NCBI GenBank assembly: GCA_963734495.1
Contig: CAVTHK010000003.1
Location: 256,001 to 320,000 of the forward strand
Source of the DNA: an uncultured Spirochaetota bacterium
GTDB lineage: Bacteria > Spirochaetota > Spirochaetia > SZUA-6 > CAVTHK01
Direction of reading: 5' to 3'
DNA length: 64,000 nucleotides
The notes beneath the pieces are model-generated. The model saw only the letters and a list, made by a program, of their open reading frames with translations. It had not been told where the DNA came from and made no database searches. The translations under genes were made by a program, and so were the position numbers. Shown piece by piece: positions 29,894-50,230 of the stretch. The first letter of the stretch is position 1. Each line of letters starts with the position of its first letter.

Positions 29894-31727
29894 CTATGAT
29901 TGCGCGGCGGCCGCGAGGTGCGCTGCGAGCGCGCGGGCGGTCTCGAGGCTGACCCGCGCGCGCTCTGCCAGCTCCTCGGGCGGCGCCTGGGCGATGGCTG
30001 CCAGCGAACCGTAGCTCTCCAGCAGCACGCGGCTGCGGGACGGGCCGATGCCCTTGACGCCTTCGAGGGTCAGGCGCTCCATGGCCTTCGCCTTCTGTTT
30101 CGTGCGCAGGCTGTTCGCGAAGCGGTGCGTCTCGTCCCGCACCGCCTGCAGGACTCTGAGCGCCGACGATGAGCGGGGGAGGACGACGGCGCTCGTGGCG
30201 CCGGCCGGCCAGATCTCTTCGTTCTCCTTTGCCAGGCCCACCAGCGGGATCCCCTCGAGGCCGAGCGAAGCGAGCACCGAGGCCGCAGCGCTCACCTGGC
30301 CGCGGCCGCCGTCGACGAGGATCAGCTCCGGCCGCTCCAGGCCGTCGTTGAGCACGCGCGTGTAGCGGCGCGCCACGACCTCGCGGATCGCGGCGTAGTC
30401 GTCGATCCGGTCGCCGAGGCTGCGGATGCTGAAGTGACGGTAGCCCGATTTCTCGGGTTTCCCGTCGACGAAGCTGATCATCGAGGCGACGGTCTGTTTC
30501 CCCGCGAGATGGGAGATGTCGAAGCCTTCGATCCGGCGCGGCGGCTTCGGCAGCCCGAGGGCCTGCTGGAGGGCCTCGAGCGCGCGGCGTGCCTTCTTCG
30601 CCCTGGCCGTAGAGCTGGATGTCCTGCTCGGCGTTCTCCATGGCGAGCGCCAGGATCTTCGCGTGGCGGCCCCGCTGCGGGAAGCGCGCCTCCACCGGCG
30701 GCCGTCCGGGCCGGGCCGCGGCCAGGTACTGCGCCAGCTCGGCCGCGTCTTCGCGCACGATCGACGGCAGGTAGGCCGCGCGGGGCGGCCGCGAGGTCAC
30801 GGGCAGCTTGCCGTAGTACTGCAGCACGAACTCGGCGACGGACTCCTCGCCCGAAGAGTAGACCTCGGTGCGGTAGACCTCCTTGCCGACCATGGCGCCG
30901 TCGCGCATCTGAAGCACGACGAAGCTCGCGCGGTTGTCCCGCGCTGCGAAGCCCACGTAGTCACGGTCGCTCTCGCCGCGGGCGCCGGCCACGTCCACCA
31001 CCTGCTTCTCGGGGGTGAGGTCGCGTATCGTGCGGATCTGGTCGCGGATGTGGGCGGCCTTTTCGTACTCCAGCCGGATGGACGCCTCGGCCATCGCGGC
31101 TTCGAGGTCCCCGACGAGCTCTTCCGTGCGGCCCGTGAGCAGCTTCCTGATCCGCTCCACGTTGACCTGGTAGGCCGCCTGGTCCACAGCGCCGACGCAC
31201 GGGCCCAGGCTGCGGCCCAGGTGGTAGTAGAAGCACGGGTGCCGGCGCGGCTTGAGAGGCCCCCTGCACATGCGGAGCGGGAACAGCTTGACGATGAGCG
31301 CGAGATACTCGTCGAGCCGTCCCGCCTGGGGATAGGGCCCGAAATAGCTCGACCCGTCGAACACGATGCGGCGCGTGCGGAAGACCCGCGGGTACGCCTC
31401 GTTCGTGATCCGGATGACCGGGTAGCTCTTGCCGTCCTTGAGGTTGATGTTGAAGCGCGGCTTCCACTGCTTGATCAGCGTGTTCTCGAGCAGGAGCGCG
31501 TCGTACTCGTCGCGGGTGACGATGACCTCGACGTCCGCCGCGTTGCGCAGGAGGATCCGCGTCTTGATGTCCTTGCCCGCGTTGAAGTACGAGCGGACGC
31601 GCTTGACGAGGCTCTTGGCCTTTCCGACGTAGATGATGCGCCTGGTCGCGTCCTTGAACAGGTAGACGCCGGCCTTGTCGGGGAGCTCCTTGACCCGCTC
31701 CGAGAGCGGCGCGACCGGCTCGCTCAT
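29894..31727 (-). CDS. uvrC: Excinuclease ABC subunit C; frameshift near 30590
   Basis: GIY-YIG domain (GVYLF..IYVGKAK), UVR domain, IEGFDISH, DGGRGQ, RDETHRFA, HhH GIGP. Confidence 0.95.
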
Positions 31728-32221
31728 CGGGCTTCGGGGACCCCCGCGGGGCGCCGGGCGCGCGGCCGGCCCGGCCCGGCGGCCGCGCGGCGGTCGAGCC
31801 ACGTCCTCTGCCGCGGGCAGCTGCCGCAGCAGTCGATGAAATCCGCGAGGCGTCCGTACATCTCGTCCGAGACGCGGTGCTCGAGCAGGCAGGCGTCGTC
31901 GCCGGCCGTCTTCTCGTCCAGCCCGAGGACGGAAACGAGAAACGCGCGCAGCACCTCGTAGCGGCGCATGATGCCGGTGACCGTCTTTTTCCCGCGGTCC
32001 GTGAGGGTGATCAGGTCGTAGGGGGCGTAGTTGAGGAGGCCGCGGCGCGAGAGCGAGCGGAGCGCGGCGGTGACCGACGCCTTGATCACGCCGAGGCGCC
32101 GGGCGATGTCGGTGACGCGGGCGGCGCCCTTTTCCTGCTGGATCAGCCAGGCGGCCTTGAGGTACATCTGCTGGCTCTCCGAGAGCTTCGCGGATCTGTC
32201 GACGGCGGATCCCTGTTTCAC
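31724..32221 (-). CDS. DtxR/MntR-family metal-dependent repressor
   Basis: LSESQQMYLKA, ARVTDIA..LGV..ASVT, ITLTDRG, DACLLEH; divergent from feoAB. Confidence 0.9.
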   Translation of the reverse strand: MKQGSAVDRSAKLSESQQMYLKAAWLIQQEKGAARVTDIARRLGVIKASVTAALRSLSRRGLLNYAPYDLITLTDRGKKTVTGIMRRYEVLRAFLVSVLGLDEKTAGDDACLLEHRVSDEMYGRLADFIDCCGSCPRQRTWLDRRAAAGPGRPRARRPAGVPEAR

Positions 32222-32228
32222 CGCGCCA

Positions 32229-32312
32229 ATGATAGTCTCGTGCCGCCCCTTGAGTCAACGAGCCAAACAGTGTTTGATCAGTCTTGACAGTGTTAGCCTC
32301 GGCAGATAATGT
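32229..32312. promoter_or_regulatory. Divergent promoters for dtxR and feoAB with a possible DtxR-type box
   Basis: Plus strand TTGACA(32284)-N17-TAATGT; minus strand TTGACT-N18-TATCAT; TTAGCCTCGGCAGA in the feo promoter spacer. Confidence 0.6.
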
Positions 32313-32364
32313 TTGCCAAGACAAACAAAGCGGGCGGATCGGGCCGTCCGCGGGAGGGTGCGGG

Positions 32365-32616
32365 GTGCGGTGCAGTGTGGGGGAGCTCCCGGTCGGCGCG
32401 AGCGCCGTCGTGGTCGGGTACGGCGAGGCCCGCCCCGGCTACCGGGCGAGGCTTCTGTCCATGGGTCTCACGCGCGGGGCCCGGGTCCGGGTGGCCCGCC
32501 TCGCGCCGCTCGGCGACCCCGTGCAGGTCCAGGTCCGCGGCGTCTCGCTCACGCTCCGGCGCGAGGAGGCGCGGGTGCTCATCCTCGAGACCGACGACGA
32601 CGCCGCGGCCGGGTGA
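32365..32616 (+). CDS. feoA: Ferrous iron transport protein A
   Basis: RLLSMGLTRG...APLGDPV.V.VRG..LTLRREEA. Confidence 0.92.
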   Translation: MRCSVGELPVGASAVVVGYGEARPGYRARLLSMGLTRGARVRVARLAPLGDPVQVQVRGVSLTLRREEARVLILETDDDAAAG

Positions 32617-32630
32617 GGGAGCAACGACCC

Positions 32631-35024
32631 ATGGAATCCTGCTGCGGGACGCGCTGTCCGGCGGCTCGCCGCTGCGCGCCGGCCCCGGCCGCACGGGCGG
32701 TTGCCGCGCTGGCGGGCAATCCGAACTCGGGCAAGACGACGCTGTTCAACGCCCTCACCGGGAGCCATCAGCGGGTCGGGAACTGGCCGGGAGTGACGGT
32801 CGAACGGAGGGAAGGCGCGCTTGCCGACGGCGGGCGCGAAGCCGTCCGCGTCGTCGATCTTCCCGGCATCTACTCGCTTGCTGCCGGGTCGGAAGACGAG
32901 GTTGCCGCCCGGGACTTCCTCCTGAGCGGCGAGCCCGGCCTCGTGGTGAGCGTCGTCGATGCGACCAGCCTCTCTCGCGGCCTGTTCCTCACCATTGGTC
33001 TCCTCGAGATGAAGGTGCCCGTCCTCGTCGTGCTCACGATGATGGACCTGGCAAGGCGGCGAGGGATCGCGATCGACGCGGAGCATCTCGCGGGTCTCCT
33101 CGACTGCCCTGTCGTGGCCGTCGACGCCACCAGCGCGAAGGACGCCGGGCGGGTCGGGGGCGCCATCCGCGCGGCGCTGGATCTCCGGCGGATCTCATCG
33201 TTCCGCGTGAGCTACGCGCCCGCGATCGAGTCGTGCCTCGCGGAGCTCGGTCCGCTGCTCGCCGGTCTCGCCGCCGGGATCGGCGCGGACGAACGGTGGG
33301 TCGCGCTCGAGCTGATCGGGGGCGACGCGTGGATCGCGCGGCGCGCGGCCGAGGCTTCAGCCGTGACTGAAGAGCATGCGGGCGGCGTCCGCCGCGGCCT
33401 GCGCGCCTCGATCGGCGAGGAGCCGGACGTCGCGGTCGCGGACGCGCGGTTCGCCCTGGCGCGCTCGCTGTCGGGCCCGGCGTCGCGGGAGCCCGCCGCG
33501 CGGGGGACGGTGACCGAGAGGGTGGACCGCGTGCTGCTCAACCGCTTCCTCGCCCTCCCGATCTTTCTCGCGGCGATGTACCTGACGTTCTGGTTCACGA
33601 TGAGCGTCGGGGGCGCTTTCGTCGGTTTCTTCGACCGGATCGCGGGCACGCTCTTTGTCGACGGTCCCGCCGCGCTGCTCGCCGGCGCCGGGGCCCCCGG
33701 CTGGCTCATCGCCCTGGCCGCAGGAGGGCTCGGCGCAGGCCTGCGCGCCGTGGCGGCGTTCGTGCCGGTCCTCTTCGCCATGTTTCTTGCGCTCGCCGCG
33801 CTCGAGGAGTCCGGCTACATGGCGCGGGCCGCCTTCGTCATGGACCGCATCATGCGATGCGTCGGCCTTCCCGGGAGGGCGTTCGTGCCGATGATGGTGG
33901 GGTTCGGGTGCACGGTCCCTGCGATCATGAGCACCCGCACCCTCGAGACCCGGCGCGACCGGTTCATGACGATCTTCATGGCGCCGAGCATGTCCTGCGG
34001 CGCGAGGCTGCCGGTCTACGCGTTCTTCGCGGCTGCATTCTTTCCGGACGCTTCCGGAGCGGTGGTCTTCTCGCTCTACGCCGCCGGTGTCCTCGTGGCG
34101 CTGCTGACCGGTCTTCTGCTCAAATCGACGCTGTTCCGCGGCGCGGAGTCCTGCTTCGTCATGGAGCTGCCGCCGTATCACGTGCCGCGGGTGCGCGCTG
34201 CGGTCGCTCAGGCGTCGTTCAGGCTCAAGGGGTTCGTGATGAGGGCGGGCGCCGCAATCGCCCTGATCGCGACCGTTCTCGGGCTGGCGAACACCATCTC
34301 CGCGGGCGGACTCCCGGCGCGCGGCGGCCGCGGCGAGACGGTCCTGTCCGCGGCGGGCAAGGTCGTCGCCCCCGTCTTCGAGCCGATGGGCGTCCGCGGC
34401 GACAACTGGCCGGCCGCGGTGGCGCTGCTCACCGGCCTGTTTGCTAAGGAAGCGGTGGTGGGGACGCTGAGCTCCCTCTACGGCCAGGGCGGGGCGGTGG
34501 AGCGGGCGGCCTCCTTTGATCCGATCGCCCGTATCCGCGAGGCCCTGGCTTCGGTCCCTGTCGGGCTGGCGCAGGCCGCGGCGCGCCTGGTCGACCCGCT
34601 GGGGCTTCGGGCGGGCGGCGCTGCGCCCCGGGACGCCGGAACGTTCGCTCGCCTGCGCGAGCGCTTCAGCCCCGCGGCTGCATACGCGTACCTGCTGTTC
34701 GTGCTGCTGTATTTCCCCTGCGTGGCGTCCATGGGTGCGGCGCTGCGGGAGATGGGAGCGGGCCTGGCCCTGGCCCTTGCCGGCTACCTCACGGCAGTCG
34801 CGTGGTCAGTGGCGACGCTGTTCTATCAGCTTGCGGCGGGGCCGAGGCCGCTGCCCGTCGCGCTCGCGCTCGCGGTGGCAGCCGCCGTGGTGGGTGTCTT
34901 TGCTCTGGCGGGAAGGAGCGGCCGCGACGCCGCGGCCGCTCCGATGGATCTGCCTACAGCCGCGACCGGGCCGCGTAGTGCGTGTGCAGCAGGTGATGCG
35001 AGCGCTCCCCGAGCGGCTCTTTGA
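32631..35024 (+). CDS. feoB: Ferrous iron transport protein B
   Basis: GNPNSGKTT, VGNWPGVTVE, DLPG, LEESGYMAR, GFGCTVP, MSCGARLP, FVMELP, AKE, LYFPC. Confidence 0.95.
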   Translation: MESCCGTRCPAARRCAPAPAARAVAALAGNPNSGKTTLFNALTGSHQRVGNWPGVTVERREGALADGGREAVRVVDLPGIYSLAAGSEDEVAARDFLLSGEPGLVVSVVDATSLSRGLFLTIGLLEMKVPVLVVLTMMDLARRRGIAIDAEHLAGLLDCPVVAVDATSAKDAGRVGGAIRAALDLRRISSFRVSYAPAIESCLAELGPLLAGLAAGIGADERWVALELIGGDAWIARRAAEASAVTEEHAGGVRRGLRASIGEEPDVAVADARFALARSLSGPASREPAARGTVTERVDRVLLNRFLALPIFLAAMYLTFWFTMSVGGAFVGFFDRIAGTLFVDGPAALLAGAGAPGWLIALAAGGLGAGLRAVAAFVPVLFAMFLALAALEESGYMARAAFVMDRIMRCVGLPGRAFVPMMVGFGCTVPAIMSTRTLETRRDRFMTIFMAPSMSCGARLPVYAFFAAAFFPDASGAVVFSLYAAGVLVALLTGLLLKSTLFRGAESCFVMELPPYHVPRVRAAVAQASFRLKGFVMRAGAAIALIATVLGLANTISAGGLPARGGRGETVLSAAGKVVAPVFEPMGVRGDNWPAAVALLTGLFAKEAVVGTLSSLYGQGGAVERAASFDPIARIREALASVPVGLAQAAARLVDPLGLRAGGAAPRDAGTFARLRERFSPAAAYAYLLFVLLYFPCVASMGAALREMGAGLALALAGYLTAVAWSVATLFYQLAAGPRPLPVALALAVAAAVVGVFALAGRSGRDAAAAPMDLPTAATGPRSACAAGDASAPRAAL

Positions 35025-36726
35025 GCCACGTCTCGTAGAGCTTCTGGATGTCGGGGTTGAGGTGGCTCTTGCGCAGCGTCTTGCCCTCGTCCTCGCGGTA
35101 GATCGCAGCGATGCGGGCCTTGCGCACCTCATCGGTGGTAAAGCGCGGCTGGCCGCCGCCGCCGATGCAGCCGCCGGGGCAGGTCATCACTTCGACAAAG
35201 TGGTACTGGCCGGCGCCGCTCTTGATCCTCTCCATCAGGATCCGGGCGTTTCCCAGGCCGTGGGCGACCGCGGTCCGCAGCTCGACCCCTTCGAGGAAGC
35301 GCCAGTCGGGAAGCGTCCCTTCGAGCCTGATCGCCGCCTCCTTGACCCCCTGCAGCCCCTCGAGCGGCGTGACGTGGAGGCCGCCGACCGGGATCTCGCG
35401 GCCGGTCACCAGCTCGTACGCGGTGCGCAGCGCCGCCTCCATGACTCCGCCGGTATTGGCAAAGATGTCGGCCGCGCCGGTGGAGAGGCCGAGCGGGGCG
35501 TCCATCTGGTCGTCGGGGAGCGAGACGAAATCGATGCCGGCCCCGTCGATCATCTGGGCGAGCTCGCGCGTCGTGAGCACGTAGTCGACGTCCTGCTGGC
35601 CGCTTGCGTTCATCTCGGGCCGCTGCGCCTCGAACTTCTTGGCCGTGCACGGCATGACCGAGACCACGACGATGTCCTCGGCCCGCCTGCCGATCTGCTC
35701 GGCGTAGAAGGTCTTGGCCAGGGCGCCGAACATCTGCTGCGGGCTCTTGCAGGTCGAGAGGTTCGGCAGGTACTCCGGGTAGAAGTGCTCGGTGTACTTG
35801 ATCCAGCCCGGCGAGCAGCTCGTGAACTGGGGGAGAGCCACCGGGCGCTTCTCGACGAGGGCTTTCTTGAGCCTCATCAGGAGCTCGGTGCCCTCCTCGA
35901 CGATCGTGAGGTCGGCCGTGAAGTTGGTGTCGAAGACCTTGGCGAAGCCGAGCCGCCGCAGGGCGGAGACCATCTTGCCGGTGACCAGCGTGCCGGGCGG
36001 GAGCCCGAAGCACTCCCCGAGGGCGGCGCGGATGGCGGGCGCGGTCTGCACGATGACCACCTTCTTCGGGTCCTCCAGGGCGCGGAAGACGCCGTCGGCG
36101 TGGCTGGACTCCACGATCGCGCCGACGGGGCAGACCGCCGCGCACTGCCCGCACTGCACGCAGGCGACGTCGGCGAGGTTCGCCGCAAAGGCGGGCGCCA
36201 CCTGGGTGCGGTAGCCGCGGTACTGCGGGAAGAGGGCGCCCACGCCCTGCACGTCGTTGCACGCGGTCACGCACCGGCGGCACTTGATGCACTTGCCGGA
36301 GTCGCGGGAAAGAGCCGGCGTGCTGCGGTCGAGCCGCACCGCGGCCTTCTCGCCCGTGTAGCGGATGTCGCGAATCCCGAGCTGGTGGGCGAGCGCCTTG
36401 AGCTCGCAGTCCTCGCTCCGGTCGCAGGTCTGGCAGTCGCCTTCGTGCTCCGACAGCAGCAGCTCGACCACCGTGCGGCGCGCGTTGCGGACGCGGCCCG
36501 TGTTGGTGCGCACCTTCATGCCGTCGGAGGCGGGGGTGGCGCAGGCGGCCGAGAGGGTCTTGGCCCCCTCGACCTCCACGACGCACACGCGGCAGGCTCC
36601 GAGGGGCGCGCGCCCCTCGAGGTGGCAGAGGGTGGGGATGTGGACCCCGGCATCCGTGGCAGCCTGGAGGATGGTCGCGCCGGGGGCGACTTTCGTTTCT
36701 CTGTCGTTGATCGTGACGCTAATCAT
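34954..36726 (-). CDS. hydA: [FeFe]-hydrogenase catalytic subunit, group A3 (HydA/HndD-like)
   Basis: N-terminal 2Fe-2S, His-ligated and 2x[4Fe-4S] domains; H-cluster motifs TSCSPGW, MPCTAKKFE, EVMTCPGGCIGGGGQP; C-terminal small-subunit region with LHTHY. Confidence 0.95.
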   Translation of the reverse strand: MISVTINDRETKVAPGATILQAATDAGVHIPTLCHLEGRAPLGACRVCVVEVEGAKTLSAACATPASDGMKVRTNTGRVRNARRTVVELLLSEHEGDCQTCDRSEDCELKALAHQLGIRDIRYTGEKAAVRLDRSTPALSRDSGKCIKCRRCVTACNDVQGVGALFPQYRGYRTQVAPAFAANLADVACVQCGQCAAVCPVGAIVESSHADGVFRALEDPKKVVIVQTAPAIRAALGECFGLPPGTLVTGKMVSALRRLGFAKVFDTNFTADLTIVEEGTELLMRLKKALVEKRPVALPQFTSCSPGWIKYTEHFYPEYLPNLSTCKSPQQMFGALAKTFYAEQIGRRAEDIVVVSVMPCTAKKFEAQRPEMNASGQQDVDYVLTTRELAQMIDGAGIDFVSLPDDQMDAPLGLSTGAADIFANTGGVMEAALRTAYELVTGREIPVGGLHVTPLEGLQGVKEAAIRLEGTLPDWRFLEGVELRTAVAHGLGNARILMERIKSGAGQYHFVEVMTCPGGCIGGGGQPRFTTDEVRKARIAAIYREDEGKTLRKSHLNPDIQKLYETWLKEPLGERSHHLLHTHYAARSRL

Positions 36727-39700
36727 CGGCTGGCTCCTTGGGGTACTGCGGGGGCTGCGTGCGCCGAGGCGGCCGAGCGGCGCGGCCGCGGCGCACCTGC
36801 TCGAGGGTGAGCTCGGGCGGCGTGATCACCGTCTTCCCGAAGTCGCAGCGCAGGCACCGGCACGCCTGCTTGAGCGCCACGGCCTCGTTCCACGGGAGCT
36901 CGACCTCGTCGAAGTTGTGCCTTCGGCGCTCGACGGCGATCGAGGGCATCTTCTCCCTCGGCGTGGCCACCGGGTCGGCCTCGGGGTCGAAGAACGTGTC
37001 CTCCGTCCTCTCCGTGCGCCAGAAGGCGTTGTAGCCTCCGCTCAGGTACAGGTCCATGGCGACCGCGGCGCGTTCGCCCCCGGCGATCGCTTCGACGACC
37101 GACGACGGGCCGCTGGCCGCGTCGCCGCCGGCGAAGACCCAGTCCAGGGACGTCTGGCCGGTGACCGGATCGGCGGAGATGAAGCCGTCGTCGGTGAGCG
37201 CCACCGCCGCCCCGCCGAGGATCTGCCGCGCGTCCAGCCTCTGGCCGATCGCCGCGATCACCTGGTCGGCCTCGACCTCGAGCTCGGCCGCGCTCGCCTT
37301 GGCGCGCCTGCGGCCGCTCCTGTCGAATTCGCCGAGCGACATGGTGACGCAGCGCAGGCCCGTGATCTTCCTGCCGCGGTCGCGCAGGACCGCGACCGGC
37401 TGCGTGAGCGTCATCAGCTCCACGCCTTCCTGCAGCGCCTCGTCGATCTCTTCGGCATACGCCGGCATCTGCTCGCGGGTGCGGCGGTAGAGGACGGTGA
37501 CCTTTTCCGCCCCGAGGCGCAGCGCCGTGCGCGCAGCGTCGATGGCGGCGTTTCCGCCGCCGATGATCGCGACCTTGCGCCCGACTTCGCACGGAGCCGC
37601 GGATGTTGTACTGCTTGAGGAACGGGACGGCCTGGACGACGCCCGGGCCCTCGGCGCCTTCGATGTCGAGCTCGATGCCTTCGGGCGCACCCACCCCGAG
37701 GAAGACGCTCTCGTAGCCCCAGTTCTTGAGGTCGGCGAGGGTAAAGTCGGCGCCGAGCCTTCGGCCGGTCTCGATGTCGACGCCCATGCGCTCGATCATG
37801 CGGATCTCGCGGGCCATGGTCTCGCGGGGCAGGCGGTAGGCGGGGATCGTCTGGGTGAGCATCCCGCCGGGCGCGGATCTCCGCCTCGAAGACCTTGGGC
37901 TTGTAGCCCAGACGGGCGAGGAAGTAGGCGCATGCGAGGCCGCCGCGGCCCCGCGCCCACGATGGCGATCTTGCGCGCGGCGTTCGCCGCGTTCTCCCGC
38001 ACCTCGGGGAGCTGAATGGTCACCTCCTGGTCGACCATGAAGCGCTTGATCGCCGCGGACGGAGACCGGCGCGTCCAGCGACGTGCGGCGGCACTTGTCC
38101 TCGCAGGTGTGGAAACAGACGCGGCCGCAGACGGCGGCGAACGGGTTGCGCTCGCGGTGCAGCTTGAGCGCCTCGGCGTAGCGCTTCTCGGCAACCAGCG
38201 AGACGAAGCCCGGCACGTTGACCCCCGCGGGGCAGGCGCTCTGGCAGGGCGCGCGCACGAGCGAGGGGCAGACGCCCGCTTCGCAGTGGCGGTCCCGGAT
38301 GTGCTGCTCGTACTCGTGGCGGAAGTGCCGTATGGTGGAGAGCACCGGGTTGGGCGCGGTCTGGCCGAGGCCGCAGAGCGCCGTCTCCTTGATCTGCTGG
38401 CCGAGCTCGACCAGCCGGTCGATGTCCTCCATGTGCCCCTTGCCCGCGCAGATCCGCTCGAGGATCTCGAGCATCCGCTTGGTGCCCACGCGGCAGGGGA
38501 CGCACTTGCCGCACGACTCGTCCTGGACGAACTCCAGGAAGAAGCGCGCGACGTCGACCATGCACGTGTCGTCGTCCATGACGATGAGCCCGCCCGAGCC
38601 CATGATCGCACCGAGCTCGGTGAGGGTCTTGTAGTCGAGCGGGACGTTGAGGTGCTCCTTGGAGATGCAGCCGCCCGACGGACCCCCGACCTGGGCGGCT
38701 TTGAAGGTCTTGCTCCCCTTGATGCCGCCGCCCACGTCGTAGATGAGCTCGCCGAGAGGCGTGCCGATCGGGACCTCGACCAGCCCGGTGTTGTTGACCG
38801 CGCCGGCGAGGGCGAAGACCTTGGTGCCCTTGCTGTCCGCGCTGCCCATGGAAGCGTACCAGGCGGCGCCGTTGAGGATGATGGCGGGGACGTTGTTGTA
38901 GGTCTCTACGTTGTTCAGGACGGTCGGCCTGCCGCGCAGGCCCTTCTGCGCCGGGAACGGCGGGCGCGGCCGAGGCTCGCCGCGCTTGCCCTCGATCGAG
39001 GCCATGAGCGCGGTCTCCTCGCCGCAGACAAAGGCGCCGGAGCCCATGCGGATCGCGAGGTCGAAGGAGAAGCCGGTCCCGAGGATGTCCTCGCCGAGGA
39101 GCCCCCGCTCGCGCGCCTGCTTGAGCGCCGCGTCGAGCCGCTCGACCGCGAGCGGGTACTCGGCCCGCACGTAGATGTACCCGCGGCTCGCCCCGATCGC
39201 GAAGGCGCCGATGACCATGCCTTCGATGACGCTGTGGGGGTCGCCCTCGAGGACGCTGCGGTTCATGAACGCGCCAGGGTCGCCTTCGTCGGCGTTGCAG
39301 AGGATGTACTTCTGTCCGTCCTCGGAGGCCGCCTTGCGCGTGAAGTCCCACTTCATCCAGGTGGGGAAACCGGCGCCGCCCCGGCCGCGAAGGCCCGACC
39401 GCTTGATCTCGTCGATGACCGTTTCGGGGGTCATCTGGGAGAGCACCTTGGCGAGGGCCTGGTAGCCGTCGTTGCCGATGTAGTCCTCGATGTCGAGCGG
39501 GTCGATGCGGCCGCAGTTGCGCAGCACCACCTTGGTCTGCCTGCGGAAATACTCCAGGTCCCGCTCGGTGCGCAGCTGGGCGTCGCCGTCGATCATCGTT
39601 TCCAGGACCTCGGGCACCCTGTCCTCGGTGACCCCTTCGAACCAGGCGCCGCTGGGCTGGAAGACCATGACCGGTCCCTTGGCGCACGGCCCGAGGCAGC

Positions 39701-40507: not shown

Positions 40508-40579
40508 GAACACCTCCTAAGGCTTCGCGGGGGGCCCCCAGATCGCCTGCCTCACGGCTACCGGGGCCCTTTTCCCCCG

Positions 40580-41059: not shown

Positions 41060-42827
41060 ATGAGCCAGGTCTGGAGCATCGCCGAAGTGACGGCCCGCTA
41101 CGGGCGGGAGCGCGACAGGCTTCTGGACATCCTCCGTGAGGTTCAGGCCGAGCACGGGTTCGTCTCCGACGAGGCCGTGCGTGAGATCGCGCACGCCCTC
41201 GGCATCCACAAAGTCGAGGTGCACGACGCGGCGACGTTCTACAATTTCCTCTCGCGCAAGCCCAAAGGCCGCACGGTCATCCGCCTCGCCAAGGGCGTGG
41301 TGGAGCGGCAGCATGGCCTGGCCGAGGTGGCCGCCGCCTTCGAGCAGGCGGTGGGCGTGCGCTTCGGGGAGACCACCGCGGACGGCGCCATCAGCCTCGA
41401 GTACACGTCCTGCATCGGGATGAGCGACCAGCCGCCCTCGGCGCTCGTGGACGGCCAGGTCGTGGGAAGCATCCGGCCCGAAGAGGTCCCGGGCATGGTG
41501 GCGGAGCTCCGCGAGCACGGGCACCTCGCCCGCTCGCGCGTCGAAACCAACCTGGTGGTCGCAGGGGCGTGCATCTTCGCCCCCATGGAGCGGGGCCGCG
41601 CCATCCGCTCCGCGGTCAACATAACGCCCGACCAGGTGATCGCCGAGCTCAACCGCGCGAGACTGCGCGGGCGCGGCGGGGCCGGGTTCCCGACCGCGAT
41701 GAAGTGGGACTTCTGCCGCAAGGCGCACGGCCGCGCCCACTACATCGTCTGCAACGCCGACGAAGGCGAGCCGGGGACCTTCAAGGACCGCGTGATCTTC
41801 AGCCTGTCGCGCGACCTCGTGATCGAAGGGCATGACGGTCGCCGCCTACGCAATCGGCGCGAGCTTCGGCCTCCTGTACCTGCGCGGCGAGTACGCCTTT
41901 CTCCAGGAGCGCATCGAGGAGGTCCTCGCGCGGCGCAGGCACCAGGGTCTGCTGGGCAATCACATCTGCGGCAAGGAAGGCTTCGACTTCGACATCCGCG
42001 TCCAGATGGGCGCGGGCGCGTACGTCTGCGGCGAGGAGTCGTCGCTGCTGGAGTCCGCGGAGGGCAAGCGCGGCGCCCCGCGCGACCGCCCGCCGTTCCC
42101 CGTGACCAAGGGCTACCTGGGCCAGCCCACGGCCGTCAACAACGCCGAGACGCTCTGCTGCGCGGCGCGGGTGCTGGAAAAGGGGGCCGGCTGGTTCTCC
42201 GGGATCGGCACCAGGGACTCGACGGGCACCAAGCTCTTCAGCGTCTCCGGCGACTGCACGGCGCCCGGCGTCTACGAGCTGCAGTTCGGGCACGAGCGTC
42301 AACAAGCTGCTCGAGATGGTCGGCGCCGAGGACGTGCAGGCCGTGCAGGTCGGCGGGCCGTCGGGCGCCTGCGTCGCGCCCAAGGACTTCGGCCGCAGGC
42401 TCTGCTTCGAGGACCTGGCGACCGGCGGCTCCGTCATGGTGTTCGGCAAGGACCGGGACCTGCTGCAGGCCGTGCGCGACTTCACCGAGTTCTTCGTCGA
42501 GGAGTCGTGCGGCTGGTGCGCCCCCTGCCGCGCCGGCACGACGCTGCTGCTGCGCATGCTCGAGCGGATCCAGGAGGGGCGGGCCACCCGCGCGGACCTG
42601 CACCAGATGGAAGACCTCGCCGCCACGGTGCAGGCACTGCAGCCGCTGCGGCCTGGGGCAGACCGCGCCCAACCCGTTCGTGACGACGCTGCGCAACTTC
42701 CCGGAGCTGTACCAGGCGCGCCTCGCGCCCCGAGGAGTACGTGCCCGCGCTCCGCCTGGAGGAGGCGCTCGCGGCGGGCGAGCGCGCCGCGGGCCGGCGC
42801 GCCGCGACCAGGGAGGCCGGCGAATGA
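41060..42827 (+). CDS. hoxF: NAD-reducing [NiFe]-hydrogenase diaphorase large subunit (NuoE-NuoF fusion); frameshifted
   Basis: [60 protein letters not shown]. Confidence 0.9.
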
Positions 42828-43539
42828 ACACCAAGGTCACCTTCGTGCTGGACGGCCGCGACGTCGAGGCCAAGCCGGGCCAGACGATCCTGGAGGCGGC
42901 GGACGCCGCGGGCATCTACATCCCGCGGCTGTGCTACCACGAGGACCTGCGTGCCCGGCGGCCACTGCCGGATCTGCTCGGTCAAGGTCAACGGGAAGGT
43001 CACCAACGCGTGCACCATGCCCGTCATGGACGGGATGGTGGTCGAGAAGCGACACGCCGGAGCTGACCGCTCACCGCAAGCGGATCGTCGAGATGCTCTT
43101 CGTGGAGGGCAATCACTTCTGCCCCATCTGCGAGAAGAGCGGCAGCTGCGAGCTGCAGGCGCTGGCGTACCGGTTCGGGATGACGGCGCCGACCTACCCG
43201 TACCTGCCGCGGCTCCGCGGCGGTGGACGCGAGCGCACCCCGACGTGTTCATCGACCGCAACCGCTGCGTGCTGTGCGGCCGGTGCGTGCGCGCCTCGCG
43301 CGACCGCGACCACAAGGGCGCTGTTCGGCTTCGAGGGCCGGGGCGTCTGCGCATGCGGGTCGTCGTGGATTCGCTCGACGGCCTCGGCGGCACGGCCCTG
43401 GTGCGCGAGGACGCGGCCGCCGCCATCTGCCCGACGGGCAGCATCGTCGTGAAGCGCGTCGGCTACGCGACGCCGTACGGCAGGCGGCACGTACGACAAG
43501 GCGCCGATCGGCTCGGAGATCGAGAAGAAGGGGTCCTGA
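42824..43539 (+). CDS. hoxU: NAD-reducing hydrogenase diaphorase small subunit; frameshifted
   Basis: [45 protein letters not shown]. Confidence 0.9.
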
Positions 43540-43591
43540 GGCCGGCCGACGGCGCGACCGGCCCTGAGGCCGCACGAAAAGGGGGAACAGC

Positions 43592-44136
43592 ATGGCGGGC
43601 AAGCCCAAAGTCGCGACGTGTGCTCTGACGGGCTGCTTCGGGTGCCACATGTCGCTGCTGGACATCGACGAGCGCATCCTCGATCTGATCGAGCTCGTCG
43701 ATTTCGACAAGTCGCCGATCGACGACATCAAGGAGCTCACGGGTCCCGTCGACATCGGGATCATCGAGGGAGGCGTGTCCACCGAGGAGAACGTCGAGGT
43801 GCTGCGCTCGTTCCGCGAGCACTGCAAGGTGCTCGTGGCCATCGGCGAGTGCGCGCTCACGGGCGGCGTCCCGTCGATGCGCAACCTCGTGCCGCCTGCA
43901 GGAGTGCCTCGAGGAGGCGTACCTGAAGGGGCCGACGGTCGTCGACGGCCGGATCCCCGACGACCCGTCGCTTCCGCGTGATCCTCGACAGGGTCTATCC
44001 CTGCCACGAGGTGGTCAAGATCGACTACCTCCTTCCGGGCTGTCCTCCGTCGGCCGACGTGCTCTGGACGGCGCTCTCGGCCCTGCTCAAGGGCGAGGAG
44101 CCGAAGCTGAGCTACGAGCTGATCAAGTACGACTGA
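43592..44136 (+). CDS. hoxY: [NiFe]-hydrogenase small subunit, group 3d; frameshifted
   Basis: GCFGCHMSLLD, GECA..GG.P, LPGCPP. Confidence 0.92.
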
Positions 44137-44150: not shown

Positions 44151-45633
44151 ATGAAGACCAACGGCAACGGCAAGCACAAGGGCACGGCGGGCGCGCAGGC
44201 CACCCGGAAGATCGTCATCAACCCCGTCACGCGCGTCGAGGGGCACGGCAAGGTCACCATCCATCTCGACGCGAAGGGCGGCATCGACCAGGCCCGGTTC
44301 CACGTCGTCGAGTTCCGCGGGTTCGAGCGCTTCGTGCGCGGCCGGCTGTACTGGGAGGTGCCGGTCATCGTCCAGCGGCTCTGCGGCATCTGCCCGGTGA
44401 GCCACCTCCTGGCCGCGGCCAAGGCGATGGACGTCATCGTCGGCGCCGACCGGCTCACGCCGACCGCGGAAAAGATGCGGCGGCTGATGCACTACGGCCA
44501 GATCTACCAGTCGCACGCCCTGCACTTCTTCCACCTCGCGTCGCCCGACCTCCTGTTCGGCTTCGACGCGCCGCCGGCGACGCGCAACGTGATCGGCGTC
44601 GCGCGCGAGCACCCCGAGATCGCGACGAAGGCCGTGCTGATGCGCAAGTTCGGCCAGGAGATCATCAAGGCCACCGCGGGAAAGAAGATCCACGGCAACG
44701 GCGCGATCCCCGGCGGGATCAACAAGAACCTCTCGATCGAGGAGCGGGACATGCTCGCCGGCGGCATCGACGACGATGCTCGCCTGGGCGGTCGAGGGGC
44801 TCGAGCTCTACAAGGGGCTGTACACGCAAGGACATCGACGCGGCTCGCCTCGTTCGGGAGCTTCGAGAGCAATTTCGTGAGCATCGTGCGCGACGACGGG
44901 GCCTCGACCTCTACGACGGTCTGCTGCGGGCCAAGGATCCCGACGGCAAGATCATCTTCGACAAGGTGCAAGGCCGCCGACTACCTGGACGTGATCGCCG
45001 AGGAGGTGCGCGGCTGGAGCTACATGAAGTTCCCGTTCATCCGGCCCCTCGGCAAGGAGAAGGGGTGGTACCGCGTCGGACCGCTGGCGCGCATGAACAA
45101 CTGCGACCGCATCGACACGCCGATCGCGGAGGCGGAGCGCAAGGAGTTCCTCGCGCTCGGAGGGAGGCCGCCCGGTCCACTCGACGATGGCCTACCACTG
45201 GGCGCGCCTGATCGAGCTGGTTCACTGCGCGGAGAAGATGAAGGAGCTGCTCGCGGACCCCGACCTCCAGGGGACGGACCTGGTGACGAGCGGCGAGCGG
45301 CGCGGCCGCGGGGTCGGCTGGATCGAGGCGCCGCGCGGCACGCTGTTCCATCACTACGAGGTCGACGATCACGACCAGGTGACGATGGCGAACCTGATCG
45401 TGTCGACGACCAACAACAACGAGCCCATGAACCAGGCGGTGCGCGCGGTCGCGCGAGACCACCTCGCCGGGAAGGCCGAGATCACCGAGGGCCTGCTGAA
45501 CGCGATCGAGGTCGCCATCCGGGCCTACGATCCGTGCCTGAGCTGCGCGACGCACGCGGTCGGCCGCATGCCGCTCGAGGTCGTGCTGCTCGGCTGCGAC
45601 GGGCGGGAGATCTCGCGCGGGAGCAAGGGGTGA
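44151..45633 (+). CDS. hoxH: [NiFe]-hydrogenase large subunit, group 3d; frameshifted
   Basis: TRVEGHGK, RGFE, L1 QRLCGICPVSH, EAPRGTL.H, L2 DPCLSCATH with a cleavable C-terminal tail. Confidence 0.94.
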
Positions 45634-46185
45634 GCGGGAGGGCCGGCCGCTCGGTCCTGGTCGTCGGCGTCGGCAACCCCGGCCGGGGCGACGACGGGAT
45701 CGGGCCCGCCCTGGTCGAGCGCCTGGAGGCGCGACGCCGTGCCCGGGCTCGCGCTGGAGTCGGCCTTTCAGCTCTCGCTCGAGCACGCGGCCGCGGTCGG
45801 CGGAGCATCCGACGGTGCTGTTCGTCGACGCGGCCGTCGGCACCGCTGTCGGCCGCGCGGCCGTTCGCGCTGCTGCCGATCGCCCCGGGCGACGGCGCCG
45901 TCACCGGCATCAGCACGCACGCGATGGCGCCCGCGGACGTGCTGGCGGTCTCGCGGCTCGCGTTCGGCGCCGGCGCCGGACGCGTGGCTGCTCGCGGTGC
46001 GGGGCCGCGACTTTCGCGAACGCGAGGGGCTGAGCGCGCGCGGCCCGCCGCAACCTGGCGCGGGCCCTCGAGGCCGCCCGGGCGTTCATCGCCTCGGCGC
46101 TGGATCGCGGCGCGGACCTCCGGTGCCGGACGAAGCGACGAGACGACGGCCGGCGCAAGTCCGACAGGGTGCTGGGGAGGAGTGA
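45630..46185 (+). CDS. hoxW: Hydrogenase maturation protease; several frameshifts, end approximate
   Basis: VVGVGNPGRGDDGIGP, FQL..E, LFVDA, STH. Confidence 0.82.
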
Positions 46186-46188
46186 AAG

Positions 46189-46567
46189 ATGACCGATCGG
46201 AAGACCATCCTGATCATCGACGATGACGCGGACATCCGGGCCTCCATCCGGATGGTGCTCGAGGCCGCGGGGTTCTCCGTAGGCGAGGCGGGAAGCGCCG
46301 ACGAAGGGCGCCAAGATCGCCCCGAGGATCTCGCCCGACGCCATCATCGTCGACCTGATGATGGAGAGCGTCGACTCGGGGGTGCAGCTCTCGCAGTCCC
46401 TCAAGGAAAGCGGCTACGCCGGCCCCATGTACCTGCTGAGCTCGGCGGGCGACTCCGTGCGCTTCAACCTGGACCCGCGCGAGCTCGGCCTGGCCGGCAT
46501 CTTCCAGAAGCCGATCCAGCACGACCTGCTCGTGCGCACCCTCAAGTCGAAGCTGCACGTCCCGTAG
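46189..46567 (+). CDS. Single-domain response regulator (receiver only); frameshift near 46310
   Basis: ILIIDDD, IVDLMM (phospho-Asp), LLSS, QKP. Confidence 0.85.
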
Positions 46568-46601
46568 GCCGGGCCCGCCGGGTCATCGCGCCCCGCTCGG
46601 C

Positions 46602-48107
46602 TCAGGCCTCGGCGCAGGGCAGCGTGACGACGAACGTGCTCCCGCGGTCCGGCGCCGAGTCCACCGAGATCGTGCCGTTGTACTCGTCGAGCACCCTCCG
46701 CACGGTGGCGAGGCCGAGGCCCGTCCCGGGGATGCCCTGCGTCTTCGGGCCGCGAGCCCTGTAGAAGTCCTGGAAGAGGTTGGACACCTCCTCCTGCGTC
46801 ATGCCGATGCCCGTGTCCTGCGAAGCGCGATCTCCCAGCCGCCGCCGAGCCGCTCCTGCCGCTGCGGACCGAGACCGTGAGGCTGCCGCCTTCGCGGTTG
46901 TACTTGATGCCGTTGGAGATCAGGTTCATGAAGATGCGGTCGAGGTCGCCGCGGTCGGCGACGCACGCGCGCCTCGTCGGGCGCCTCGAGGCTCAGGCGC
47001 GATCCCGCGCTTTTCCGCCTGCACGCGGAAGAACTCCAGCTGCTCGTCGAGGACCTGCCGCAGGTCGAGCCCCTGCGCCGACCGCTCGACCTTGCGCGCC
47101 TCGCGACTGCGCAGGAACTGCAGGTCCTTCACGAGGTCCAGCAGCGCTTCGGCGCGCGCCTTGCTCCGCGCCATGATCTCCTTGATCCGCTCGGGCTCCC
47201 GTCGAGCGTGCCCGCGAGCACGACGTCGATGTAGCTGACGATCGCGGCCAGCGGGCTGGTGAGCTCGTGCGCGACCATGGAGACGAAGCGGTTGCGGTCC
47301 TGCTCGGCTTCCCACTCGTCGGTGACGTCGCTGCAGCAGCAGGATCAGCCCCGCGGTCTCCCTCGCCGCGGATGTACGGCGCCGCGTTCAGCTCGAGCCT
47401 GCGGCCCCGGAGCTCGAGCCGCAGCCGCCGGAAGCGGCCGGCCGCCGGCCCGCGCGGCGAGCAGCGTCCTCGACGACGGCCGGTGACCGCGGCGTCGAGG
47501 CCGAGCTCCTCGAGGGCCAGGTCCTCGCGGTAGCGGACGCCGAGCAGCGAACTCGGCCCGCGGGTTCATCAGCACCGGCTTGCGGTTGATGTTGAGCACG
47601 ATCACCCCTTCGCGCATCGAGTTGATGAGCTGGCGCGAGAGGTTGCGCTCGCTGTTGAGCGCGGACAGGTAGGTCTCCCGCTCGCCGGATGAGCCGGCAC
47701 TGCCGCGCCCGCCCGCTCGACGACCTGCAGCAGCTCGTCGGGCGCCGAACGGCTTGACCAGGAAGTCGAAGGCGCCGTGGCGGGTGACCTCGACCGCGGC
47801 CTCGACGGTGGCCAGCGCCGAGACGATGACGACGACCGTCGCGGCCGCTCTCGTTGATGCGCCTCGGTCACCTCGAAGCCGTCGATCCCGGGCATCTTGA
47901 GGTCGACGAGGGCGACGTCGAAGGTCCCGCCCGGCGAGCCGCACCAGCGCCTCGCCGCCGTCCGCGGCCGCGACGACGGAGTGACCCTGGCGCTCGAGGA
48001 TGCGGCGCATGCCCTCGCGCATGCCCTCCTCGTCGTCGACGACCAGGATGCTGAGGGCGCCGCCTCGGAGGACGCTGTCGCGGGGTCGGTCCGACGACCG
48101 CGCTCAC
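46602..48107 (-). CDS. Hybrid kinase REC-PAS-HisKA-HATPase; many frameshifts
   Basis: ILVVDDEE, VDLKMPG.DG, DFLVKPF, NSMREGVIVL..MNP (PAS), VAHELTSPL, NLISNGIKYN, DTGIGM, GTGLGL. Confidence 0.82.
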
Positions 48108-50230
48108 GGCGCGGACCTCTCCGCGCCGACGGCCGCGCCGGCGCCGGCGCCGGGTCCCGCAGCCCGATCTCGAAGCAGGCGCCGCCCTCGGGGCGATTGC
48201 CGCCGCGGATCCAGCCGCCGTGCATCTTGACGATCCCGTAGCAGACCGAGAGGCCCAGTCCCGTGCCCTTGCCGACCGGCTTGGTCGTGTAGAAAGGCGT
48301 GAACAGGTGCTCGAGGACGCCTCTCGGGGATGCCCGGCCCCGTGTCGGACACCGAGACGGTGAACTCCCCGTCGCCCTCCTGCGGTCTCGATCCGGATGC
48401 GTCCCGCCCCCGGGCATCGCCTCGATCGCGTTCTTGATGATGTTGTCGAAGACCTGCCGCAGCTGCGACGAGTCGACGCTGTGAGCCTTCATGCCGTCGT
48501 CGAGGTCGAGCTCGACGCGCACCCGTCCCGCGGGGTCGAGGGCGCGGGCACGGCCCGGGCCGCTTCGCGGACCAGCGCGTTGATGTCGGTCTGCTGACGG
48601 TCGATCTTCTTCTCGCGCGCGAAGTTCAGGATGCCCTGCACGATCGAGCGGGCGCGCTCGGACTCGCGGATGATGCGGTCCGCGTCCGCCGAGCCCCTGC
48701 CCGCTCGCCGCCTTCGGCGAGCTCCTCCCGCAGGAGGTGCGCGTACATGAGCACGACGCCGAGCGGGTTGTTGATCTCGTGGGCGATGCCCGCGGCCATC
48801 TGGCCCATGGAGGCGAGCTTCTCGGCCTGGATCAGGCGGCTCTGGTTCTCCTTGAGGTCCGTGATCGTCGTCCTCGAGCCGCGAGATGAGGTAGGGCAGG
48901 CACATCTCGACCTCGGCGATGCCGCGGTAGACGGCCACCGCCTTCTCCCGGCAGGAGTCGTAGCCGCAGGCGCGGCAGTTCAGCTCGTCCTCGGGGACGC
49001 ACCTTGCCGGTGCTGGCGAGGATCTTGCGGATGTCCTCCTCGGGCACCGGCGCCTCGCGGGTCTTGGATCTGCGCGAACGTCTTGGGGAGGTCGAGCGTC
49101 GAGGTAGCGGGTGTTGGCGGCCGCCCACTCCTCGATGTCGCTGATCAGCGGGACTGCGCTTCATGTAGTCGACGATGTACTTCTTGCGCTCGTAGAAGGT
49201 GAGGTCGTTGGGCATCGCGGGCCCGCCGATGCACCCTTCGCAGAACAGCAGGTCGAAGAGCCTGGTCACCACGGGCCGGCGCTTGCGCACGATCCGGCCG
49301 AGGACTGGAGCAGCTCCGTGACCCGGGCGCTTCCCTCGACGATCATCACCGGGCTCTCCAGCAGGTCGTCGTCGATGGCGGCCGCCTTGAGCAGCCCGCC
49401 GGTGACCGGGTAGATCTGGCCGAGGTTGGCGTGCGGCGGATCGAAATCGCGCGGCGCCGCGGCCTGCGGATCGACGCCGAGGTCCGCGAACAGCTCGATC
49501 AGCTCCTCGAAGGTGAGCACCTCGTCCACGAGGCCGAGTCCGCCGCGCCTCGTCCTTCTTCGCGACGCACGGCCCGATGAAGACGATCGGCGGGAGGCTC
49601 CGCGCCGGTCGGGCGTGAGGCGCTCGCGGATCACGCGCGGCCATCGCCTCCATCGGCGAAACGACGTCGCGCGAGGTGCGGCACGAGCTCGGGGCAGATC
49701 TTCTCCACGTACGAGACGACCGCGGGGCAGGGCGAGCTGATGACGAAGGCCGGCCGACCGGCGGCCGGTCTCATCGCGCACGAGCTGCCCGAATCGCCGG
49801 CGATACTCGTAGGAGACCAGGTCCGCGCCGAAAGCCACCTCGTAGCACGCGGCTGAACCCGCAGGCGGCGACCGCGCCGACGAGGCGCTCGGGCTTGACG
49901 TCGAGGAAGGCGGCGGGAAAGGAGGGCGCGATCATGGCGCAGCACGGCCTGCCCGGAGCGCAGGAGGCGCTCGACCTCGGCGACCGACGAGCGGATCTGC
50001 TTGGCGCCCTGGGAGCACATCGGGACGCAGTAGCCGCAGGAGATGCACTTGGAGGCGATGATCTCGGCCTGGCCGCCGTGCACCTCGATCGCCTTGGTCG
50101 GGCAGGTCCGCACGCAGGAGTAGCACTTCCTGCACTTTTCGGCAGCCGTCAGGACCGCGAGAGAATCACCGGCTGCCTGGCCGTAGCGAGCCCTGCCCGC
50201 GGGCCGCTGCGGTCCCGGAAGTGCCTCCAT
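48104..50230 (-). CDS. Sensory [FeFe]-hydrogenase-like protein fused to a histidine kinase (group C1-like); many frameshifts
   Basis: 2x[4Fe-4S] ([23 protein letters not shown]); H-cluster-like [28 protein letters not shown]; FeS domain [40 protein letters not shown]. Confidence 0.85.

Follow-up and report, generated by a model that had tools for sequence, protein, structure and literature searches.

When the window, i.e. the whole stretch of 64,000 nucleotides analysed here (contig CAVTHK010000003.1, positions 256,001 to 320,000, from an uncultured Spirochaetota bacterium), was compared with related genomes, one conserved unit was observed among its hydrogenase genes. This unit consists of a sensor kinase, in which an [FeFe]-hydrogenase-type domain (H-domain) is joined to a histidine kinase, and a second histidine kinase that carries a receiver (REC) domain and is called REC-kinase below. 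The pair follows the [FeFe]-hydrogenase operon hydCBA in most lineages, and adjoins the [NiFe]-hydrogenase operon hoxFUYHW plus a receiver gene in one spirochaete clade, to which the window belongs. The juxtaposition of hydCBA and hox is confined to the window's genus, so that the "three-hydrogenase island" described in an earlier note on this DNA is a local juxtaposition. On balance, we lean towards reading the region as dtxR-feoAB, a hydCBA operon with a GltD-like tail on HydB, a hox operon that ends in a receiver gene and a converging pair of kinases, where the sensor would report H2 or redox state via a phosphorelay that likely acts on hox. Most of these parts have already been described in the literature; the three-way arrangement was found only in the window's genus.

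The genome of the window (G000; 18 contigs, 5.38 Mb) is rated 83 % complete. A genome of the same genus (G001, hereafter the congener; 220 contigs, 99 % complete) served as the intact reference. As the window has a G+C content of 70 %, long spurious open reading frames (ORFs) are plentiful, and therefore every ORF of at least 60 amino acids was scanned against Pfam (180 stop-to-stop ORFs in six frames, positions 31000-51500). Genes were also placed by a second method, tblastn of the intact congener proteins against the window. With both methods, the gene list, order and orientation given in the earlier note were found to be correct throughout. The features are as follows.

31724..32254, minus strand: DtxR-family iron-dependent repressor (Pfam Fe_dep_repress 2.2e-14 and Fe_dep_repr_C 1.1e-15; syntenic in the congener)
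32278..32616, plus strand: feoA (Pfam FeoA 2.5e-17)
32613..35024, plus strand: feoB, frame intact, start approximate (Pfam FeoB_N 2.5e-55, Gate, FeoB_C, FeoB_Cyto)
34954..36726, minus strand: hydA, [FeFe]-hydrogenase catalytic subunit, 590 amino acids, intact (Pfam Fe_hyd_lg_C 1.6e-94, SSU, Fer2_4, NADH-G_4Fe-4S_3, Fer4)
36719..39941, minus strand: hydB, NuoF-like with C-terminal Fer4_20 and Pyr_redox_2 (GltD/NfnB-like), frame broken (Pfam in two frames)
39971..40513, minus strand: hydC, NuoE-like [2Fe-2S] subunit, intact (Pfam 2Fe-2S_thioredx 3.6e-47; 81 % identity to the congener HydC)
40514..41050, no strand: divergent intergenic region of 537 bp with promoter-like elements toward hydCBA and hoxF
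41051..42830, plus strand: hoxF, diaphorase subunit (NuoE-like plus NuoF-like), at least four frame changes (Pfam pieces in three frames; tblastn pieces 77-85 % identical to the congener HoxF)
42815..43560, plus strand: hoxU, split (Pfam Fer2_4 and NADH-G_4Fe-4S_3 in two frames)
43568..44136, plus strand: hoxY, [NiFe] small subunit, split (Pfam Oxidored_q6 in two ORFs)
44157..45633, plus strand: hoxH, [NiFe] large subunit, split (Pfam NiFeSe_Hases, N- and C-terminal pieces in two frames)
45636..46120, plus strand: hoxW, maturation endopeptidase, split, end approximate (tblastn to the congener HoxW)
46186..46567, plus strand: lone receiver (REC-only), last gene of the hox operon, split once (Pfam Response_reg in two frames)
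46605..48103, minus strand: REC-(PAS)-HisKA-HATPase kinase, split (Pfam pieces; intact congener ortholog of 502 amino acids)
48124..50230 (the end at 48124 approximate), minus strand: sensor kinase, heavily split (Pfam pieces Fer4, Fe_hyd_lg_C, FeS (PF04060), HisKA and HATPase; intact congener ortholog of 699 amino acids)

The congener is colinear with the window over 34 kb, from uvrC to past a GGDEF gene, and all of its genes there are intact. Two differences were observed: feoB is missing between feoA and hydA, and 6.3 kb are present between hydC and hoxF.

The neighbourhood of the sensor was compared in 79 stretches around its relatives (the best 80 of 200 confirmed relatives were kept). 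The sensor loci come from Spirochaetota, Bacteroidota, Planctomycetota, Acidobacteriota, Myxococcota, Hydrogenedentota and other lineages. In 41 of the 79 loci the sensor is preceded, on the same strand, by a hydA that ends at most 1.5 kb upstream, and hydA is nearby in three more. The REC-kinase, often after a REC-only gene, comes next in 61 of the 68 loci that have at least 1.5 kb downstream of the sensor. A GltD-type HydB was found in seven sensor loci, five by coverage plus L082 and L083, where it is cut by the locus end. Loci linked to hox were counted by their HoxH match, since HoxF cross-matches HydB. By this count hoxH is present in eight spirochaete sensor loci, the congener included, in two gene orders: convergent as in the window (L015, L033, L074) and co-directional (L030, L038, L039, L040, L042). 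When a quick LG+G4 tree of 78 rows was drawn, all eight Hox-linked sensors fell into one clade of 17 rows (Shimodaira-Hasegawa-like approximate likelihood ratio test, SH-aLRT, 94), which is nested among the HydABC-linked spirochaete sensors. Of the other nine rows of this clade, seven have too little flank to judge. The link between the sensor-kinase pair and hox, noticed earlier in the window, is thus conserved in eight spirochaete loci and in two gene orders.

The hox operon itself has the gene order of group 3d enzymes (HoxFUYH; structure 5xf9), i.e. hoxF (NuoE plus NuoF)-hoxU-hoxY-hoxH-hoxW. The best solved relative of HoxH is the NAD+-reducing hydrogenase 5xf9_D (E-value 1.5e-176), and the HoxF/HoxU diaphorase module is present by Pfam. 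The congener HoxH carries both ligand motifs (RLCGICP for RxCGxC and DPCLSCATH for DPCxxC) and the C-terminal tail, and the congener HoxW scores 78.9 bits on TIGR00072 (cut-off 47.45). The earlier assignment to type 3d therefore stands, as a 3d-like class predicted from the closest solved relative. Unlike group 3d Hox, the operon here is closed by a lone receiver, and hyp genes were not found in G000. The hox operon is the only [NiFe] copy in G000; in the congener, a second [NiFe] large-subunit gene is located on another contig (G001:C194:1625-1831).

The receiver is a REC-only protein (127 amino acids in the congener, with Response_reg over the cut-off). It follows hoxW in all eight sensor-linked hox loci and in seven of ten further hox loci of the order. 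Two of the order-level loci have a different histidine kinase beside the receiver-bearing operon (L103:7955-9313 (+) and L110:540-1913 (+)), one of them with a PilS-like membrane domain of six helices. Since receiver-bearing hox operons exist without the sensor, the receiver does not need this sensor; it is an old, regular last gene of spirochaete hox operons, and the kinase beside the operon varies. In one of the co-directional loci, a protein of 799 amino acids with HisKA-HATPase, pyridine nucleotide-disulphide oxidoreductase, dimerisation and rhodanese domains is encoded between the REC-kinase and hoxF (L038:12040-14439 (+)), and similar genes are found in L039 and L042. It is likely a kinase with a flavoenzyme as its sensor.

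The sensor kinase has two N-terminal [4Fe-4S] motifs, the [FeFe] H-domain, a Cx2Cx4Cx16C motif (PF04060) and then HisKA-HATPase, and in the congener HisKA and HATPase_c lie in the same ORF as the H-domain. The four H-cluster cysteines and the neighbouring lysine are invariant in all 68 full-length relatives. The Cys299 proton relay is missing (Pro, Ser, Asp or Thr is found there), Met353 is replaced by Gly, and in 67 of the 68 sensors there is one residue fewer between the last two H-cluster cysteines. Despite its broken frame, the copy in the window keeps SSPCP, GPCVAKK, FCEGCIGG, the H-box and the G-box, i.e. all cofactor and kinase motifs. The predicted phosphorylation sites are AHEINNPL in the sensor and, in the REC-kinase, VDLKMP (the REC aspartate) and AHE(I/L)TSPL (the H-box).

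These features were compared with published sensory hydrogenases, where the papers given by PMC number were consulted in excerpt. Group C and D proteins are described with two N-terminal [4Fe-4S] motifs, no Cys299 relay, a replaced Met353 and Cx2Cx4Cx16C, and often stand in an operon with a group A hydrogenase (PMC8163306). C1 in HydDB is termed 'histidine kinase-linked (putative)' (PMC5037454), and a 2024 report describes C1 proteins with a HATPase domain beside A3 genes in Hydrogenedentota (PMC11406978). TmHydS (group C), TamHydS (group D) and HydDB C1 have in common with the present sensor the Fe-S motifs, the H-domain without Cys299, Met353 replaced by Gly and the Cx2Cx4Cx16C motif, as well as the frequent operon with a group A hydrogenase that is also seen for the sensor relatives here. 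The sensor is accordingly predicted to be a fusion protein of a C1-type [FeFe] domain and a histidine kinase, and a putative sensor of H2 or redox state. The earlier note had called it a sensory [FeFe]-kinase; the group C features and the fused kinase are indeed present, and H2 sensing itself is a prediction from the motifs. In contrast to the published group C and D sensors, HisKA-HATPase follows the four-Cys motif immediately and a PAS domain is lacking, and the neighbour in the window's clade is a [NiFe] hox operon instead of a group A [FeFe] operon. Among the titles and abstracts listed in a literature search of limited coverage, no report of a group C sensor linked to a [NiFe] hox operon was found.

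A hydrogenase-type sensor that acts through a histidine kinase is known from the group 2b regulatory [NiFe]-hydrogenase HoxBC, with its kinase HoxJ and regulator HoxA. The two systems are alike in that such a sensor and a histidine kinase stand beside an energy-converting hydrogenase that is presumably controlled. They differ in sensor class, which is unrelated (an [FeFe] H-domain and not a [NiFe] one), and in that sensor and kinase are one polypeptide here. In addition, the present cluster has an extra REC-kinase and a REC-only protein but no DNA-binding regulator.

In the mechanism that we propose, the H-domain, with its four invariant cysteines and the flanking Fe-S clusters, would change how actively the fused kinase phosphorylates itself. 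From there, phosphate would be handed to the REC-kinase (at its REC domain), to the lone receiver that ends the hox operon, or to both, and from the REC-kinase the signal may reach an output regulator encoded elsewhere. The final output is placed outside the cluster because the cluster has no DNA-binding domain. The hox operon would be the target, as the nearest and most consistently linked one in the window's clade. The sensor may also influence hydCBA in this genus, as hydCBA has no sensor set of its own here and one sensor lies beside both operons in the two related genomes; this influence on hydCBA is the weakest step. Sensory [FeFe]-hydrogenases are putative and their signalling output is undemonstrated; with the histidine kinase fused directly, autophosphorylation in the presence and absence of H2 could serve as an easy read-out, and the recurrent position next to a receiver-bearing [NiFe] hox operon allows a concrete hypothesis on the controlled target. 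A bolder idea, which we put forward tentatively and regard as doubtful, is that the sensor relay moved from HydABC to the receiver-bearing [NiFe] Hox in one spirochaete clade and formed a cross-class H2 circuit. The same idea holds that in the window's lineage the sensor and HydA are kept under selection without HydEFG, which would imply either that the H-cluster is built in an unknown way or that H-domains have a cofactor-poor, redox-sensing role.

Several observations weigh against a hox-directed H2 relay. Two sensor loci of the Hox-linked clade (L023 and L024) extend 2.1 and 3.6 kb past the kinases without hox. Among the ten further hox loci of the order, eight are informative (at least 6.5 kb beyond the operon), and none of these eight has a sensor hydrogenase nearby, though the same receiver occurs among them. 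No output domain, DNA-binding or enzymatic, was found in the cluster (in the window or in the congener) or in four related loci. The hypA-F genes were not found in G000 (83 % complete), the H-cluster of the sensor and of HydA cannot come from the known route (see below), and the error-rich patch of the window starts right at the hydC-hoxF junction.

The linkage of hydCBA and hox was studied in an order sample of 41 genomes (G000-G040), consisting of G000 and 40 order-level relatives. A window-type HydA (at least 67 % identity) was found in 10 of the 40 relatives; in eight of the ten it is accompanied by a HoxH ortholog (at least 62 % identity), always on another contig. Nine hydCBA loci were fetched from the order relatives, of which one was too short and eight were counted. 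No hox gene was observed in any of the eight within 4.9-11.5 kb upstream of hydC. Seven of them have their own paralogous sensor (38-44 % identity), a receiver and a REC-kinase after hydA, a set which the window operon lacks.

The earlier note had interpreted feoAB/dtxR, hydCBA, hox and the relay as one selected module that senses H2, switches between two hydrogenases and has its own iron supply. Two genomes of one genus have the units side by side, and in G000 the two promoter regions lie back to back. Only one sensor hydrogenase was found in G000, and hydCBA is without the private sensor set of its orthologs, so one relay could serve both operons. However, the units are unlinked in related genomes, the outcome that the earlier note had named as refuting: hydCBA and hox are on different contigs in all eight order relatives that have both, hox is near window-type hydCBA in none of the eight loci, and the sensor is present at none of the eight informative hox loci. 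In the congener, 6.3 kb of hyp genes split the intergenic region. The iron genes are not conserved either: feoB has no counterpart at this position in the congener, where only dtxR and a feoA-like piece are found (L009:2615-3165), and no FeoB or DtxR match was found in the 79 sensor loci or the nine hydCBA loci. Most plausibly, dtxR-feoA(B) has no relation to the hydrogenase genes next to it, the "own iron supply" finds no support, and we consider a single integrated module improbable. The conserved sensor kinase and REC-kinase pair, with hox as its probable target, is the reading that we retain.

The region between hydC and hoxF also bears on the contiguity of the window. A promoter-like TTGACA-17-TAGATT with a TG extension is found on the minus strand at 40753-40725 (one found against 0.2 expected), and it is a candidate sigma-70-like promoter for hydCBA. 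Both of its hexamers are conserved upstream of hydC in the congener, and a TTGACG...TACTCT element is likewise conserved in both genomes upstream of hoxF. The "single shared intergenic region" of the earlier note is specific to G000. Where the window has 40514-41050, the congener has 6.3 kb (L009:8642-14186 and L011:186-900) with hypE, hypD, hypC and hypF (-), hypA (+) and an Mrp/ApbC-like ATPase in place of canonical HypB. No remnant of hyp was found in window 40514-41050, where the two promoter regions simply abut.

It could be supposed that this junction is an assembly artefact, and that the real genome has the hyp cassette of the congener or does not have the two blocks adjacent at all. 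In its favour, the junction lies at most a few hundred bases from the start of the error-rich patch, 6.3 kb occupy this very point in the congener, and it would be odd for all hyp genes to be lost beside a hox operon that is otherwise conserved. On the other hand, both promoter regions are present and are joined without a hyp remnant, no hyp sequence is found elsewhere in the assembly, which leaves no displaced piece, and the flanking synteny is otherwise colinear over 34 kb. We therefore hold an artefactual junction to be unlikely, about as much so as the integrated module, and take the junction of the window as probably real.

The reading frames to the right of the junction are broken. When the congener proteins were used in tblastn, every gene from hoxF to the sensor kinase was split over at least two frames, and hydB was split at least once. 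A global alignment to the congener contained 78 gaps not divisible by three in 41.0-52.0 kb, compared with 0-4 per kb elsewhere; in hydB, five such gaps are located in 36-39 kb along with the frame change seen by tblastn. Among the 78 gaps, 51 are single extra bases in the window and five are single missing bases, and only three are located in homopolymers (3 or longer), the other 75 being outside. Per kb bin, the nucleotide identity of matched columns resembles that of the flanks as far as 50 kb (0.77-0.84) and drops to 0.67-0.72 in 50-52 kb, where an unassigned gene (unk245) and a DUF4416 gene lie. When the window bases were read in the frames of the congener, with X at missing bases, HoxF (81.5 % identity), HoxU (83.5 %), HoxY (81.8 %), HoxH (83.8 %), the receiver (82.5 %), the REC-kinase (74.4 %) and the sensor (78.7 %) had no internal stop. 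HoxW showed 65 % identity and one internal stop. For comparison, two intact neighbours are 86.5 % and 78.8 % identical to the congener, and HydA 84 %.

These data bear on the choice between an error of assembly and a decay of the genes. A decaying pseudogene cluster, in which hox, receiver, kinase and sensor became functionless after the loss of the hyp cassette, would fit with frame breaks that are concentrated in exactly this block and with hyp genes of the congener that are not found anywhere in the 5.38 Mb. However, the insertions outnumber the deletions by 51 to five and 75 of 78 gaps avoid homopolymers, substitution identity is not lowered up to 50 kb, the frame-followed proteins are 74-84 % identical without stops, the sensor retains every catalytic and cofactor motif, and similar ORF-poor patches are spread over the genome (109 of 1047 windows of 10 kb have less than 35 % cover by long ORFs with high G+C at third codon positions, GC3). 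Decay is thus highly improbable, and it was rejected on the indel spectrum and the frame-followed identity. The breaks at 41-52 kb are likely a low-quality consensus patch, because the indels are biased to insertions, lie outside homopolymers and affect a sequence that is otherwise under purifying selection. This agrees with the suspicion of indel errors voiced in the earlier note, as the breaks bear the signature of assembly error. In practical terms, the frame breaks of the window are likely technical, and its island is a juxtaposition of local extent. Some stretches of G000 have no long high-GC3 ORF at all (e.g. C3:1-50000, C9:375000-420000 and C5:75000-90000), which reflects either patchy assembly quality or foreign or low-GC inserts; this probably also lowers the completeness estimate of 83 %.

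The HydABC unit has the gene order hydC-hydB-hydA, the same as in the electron-bifurcating HydABC of A. woodii and T. kivui (7q4v, 8a6t) and in 'sub-type I BfuABC'. The HydA1 chains of 8a6t (8.2e-184) and 7q4v (3.1e-179) are the closest solved relatives of the window HydA. Under the rule of HydDB, a NuoF-type subunit beside hydA places the enzyme in group A3 (PMC5037454). A NuoF-like HydB and a NuoE-like HydC are encoded beside hydA here, and the A3 class named earlier holds by this rule and by the Pfam domains. The H-cluster motifs of HydA are TSCSPGW (L1), MPCTAKK and EVMTCPGGCIGG, and its congener ortholog is over the cut-off of NCBIfam NF040763. TSCSPGW was also considered as a sign of a dead HydA. 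This was dropped, since the alignment with 7q4v_A (A. woodii HydA1) shows the same serine, and in the active A. woodii enzyme Ser301 ligates the cluster and replaces the Cys ligand without effect on the H-cluster (PMC10021017). Serine is also common at the fifth L1 position in the sub-type I paper (PMC11406978).

HydB is intact in the congener (1060 amino acids), where all domains (Complex1_51K, SLBB, NADH_4Fe-4S, Fer4_20, Pyr_redox_2) are in one frame. The usual domain at the C-terminus, which carries two [4Fe-4S] clusters, is ferredoxin-like and is the proposed ferredoxin site, is absent, and Fer4_20 plus Pyr_redox_2 are found in its place. This tail (congener residues 560-1029) matches the GltD-like part of 8oh5_C, 9bov_A and 9n5u_A. 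In 'sub-type I BfuABC', the C-terminal B3/B4 domain of HydB is likewise replaced, by DPD_II and an FAD/NAD(P) domain, and close homologs occur in Spirochaetota (PMC11406978). The HydABC with its NuoF-GltD fused HydB matches this sub-type, and its hydrogenase activity is putative. In the excerpt of PMC9304861 that was consulted, a GltD-type BfuB is not mentioned. We also considered membership in Stn and rejected it, as Stn has the GltD-like module in a NuoG-like subunit and no H-domain (PMC7483475).

Maturation genes were searched for in both genomes of the genus. HydE, HydF and HydG gave nothing over the cut-off of the family models in G000 or G001. When HydG proteins of three relatives, two HydE-like proteins and one HydF-like protein were used as tblastn queries against G000, only weak GTPase or unrelated matches were obtained, and a same-order HydG found nothing in either congener while recovering itself. 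Unlike the HydABC/BfuABC systems above, the window's genus has no detected HydE, HydF or HydG, and therefore the known route to the H-cluster is unavailable. As for the [NiFe] site, HypB, HypC and HypD were not found over the cut-off in G000 with family models, and HypA, D, E and F were not found there by tblastn with the congener proteins (E-value 1e-8). The congener also yielded no hypB, though hypA, C, D, E and F are present between its hydC and hoxF. With no hydEFG found in the genus and no hyp found in G000, the known maturation routes of all three metal sites are unaccounted for, and all three "hydrogenases" are putative as active enzymes.

In the order sample, HydE, HydF and HydG were found together in the same five of 41 genomes. 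Strong HydA matches (below 1e-100) were observed in 24 relatives and a sensor-like H-domain in 19 of the 41 genomes, only three of these 19 having the maturases. A strong HydA without any maturase was observed in 13 genomes of at least 90 % completeness. HydG was over the cut-off in none of the ten relatives with window-type HydA. In the wider set, HydG was found in nine of ten genomes of other phyla, in three of five Hox-linked spirochaetes (plus one broken copy) and in three of five HydABC-linked spirochaetes. In three loci of other phyla hydG lies right after the kinases, followed by hydF in one and by a second radical-SAM gene in another. The pattern may be explained by an unknown maturation route, by cubane-only H-domains or by a systematic loss of the hydEFG island from the bins. 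Among the titles and abstracts listed in a literature search of limited coverage, none concerned bacterial genomes without maturases.

The second of these options can be put more sharply: the H-domains of the lineage would have no [2Fe] subcluster, the sensor would be a [4Fe-4S] redox sensor kinase, and HydABC would be a pyridine-nucleotide/ferredoxin oxidoreductase like Stn/NfnABC. The scarcity of maturases in the order speaks for it (five of 41 genomes, neither congener among them; three of 19 with a sensor-like H-domain; HydG over the cut-off in none of ten with window-type HydA), and the genes are nonetheless under purifying selection. Homology also links the tail of HydB with the NADPH module of Stn and NfnABC (PMC7483475), and H-cluster motifs are hardly found in C1 proteins of the phylum studied in PMC11406978. 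Yet the four H-cluster cysteines and the neighbouring lysine are kept in all 68 sensors, and HydA keeps L1-L3 with the serine variant of the active A. woodii enzyme (PMC10021017). Moreover, the same families adjoin hydG and hydF in other phyla, where HydG is found in nine of ten genomes, and most of the genomes are metagenome bins, from which a hydEFG island could be systematically lost. After the argument from the L1 motif fell, what remains for a Stn-like HydABC is the missing maturases. We consider H-domains without the [2Fe] subcluster an unlikely explanation, though less so than the integrated module, and keep to a sensor of H2 or redox state with a putative H-cluster. In many spirochaetes, hydA- and sensor-type genes are under selection without maturases, which questions the calling of H2 metabolism from hydA homologs alone in metagenome surveys.

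Further genes were observed beyond the sensor. Two genes lie upstream of it on the same strand, one without a family match (unk245, window 50289-50940 (-)) and one ending in DUF4416 (51078-52607 (-)). They share 57 % and 52 % identity with the congener, compared with 79-86 % for their neighbours, and are beside the sensor in no other locus. A GGDEF diguanylate cyclase gene, 5 kb past the sensor (window 55102-56286 (+)), has an N-terminal part of 237 amino acids without assignment and is conserved in the congener.

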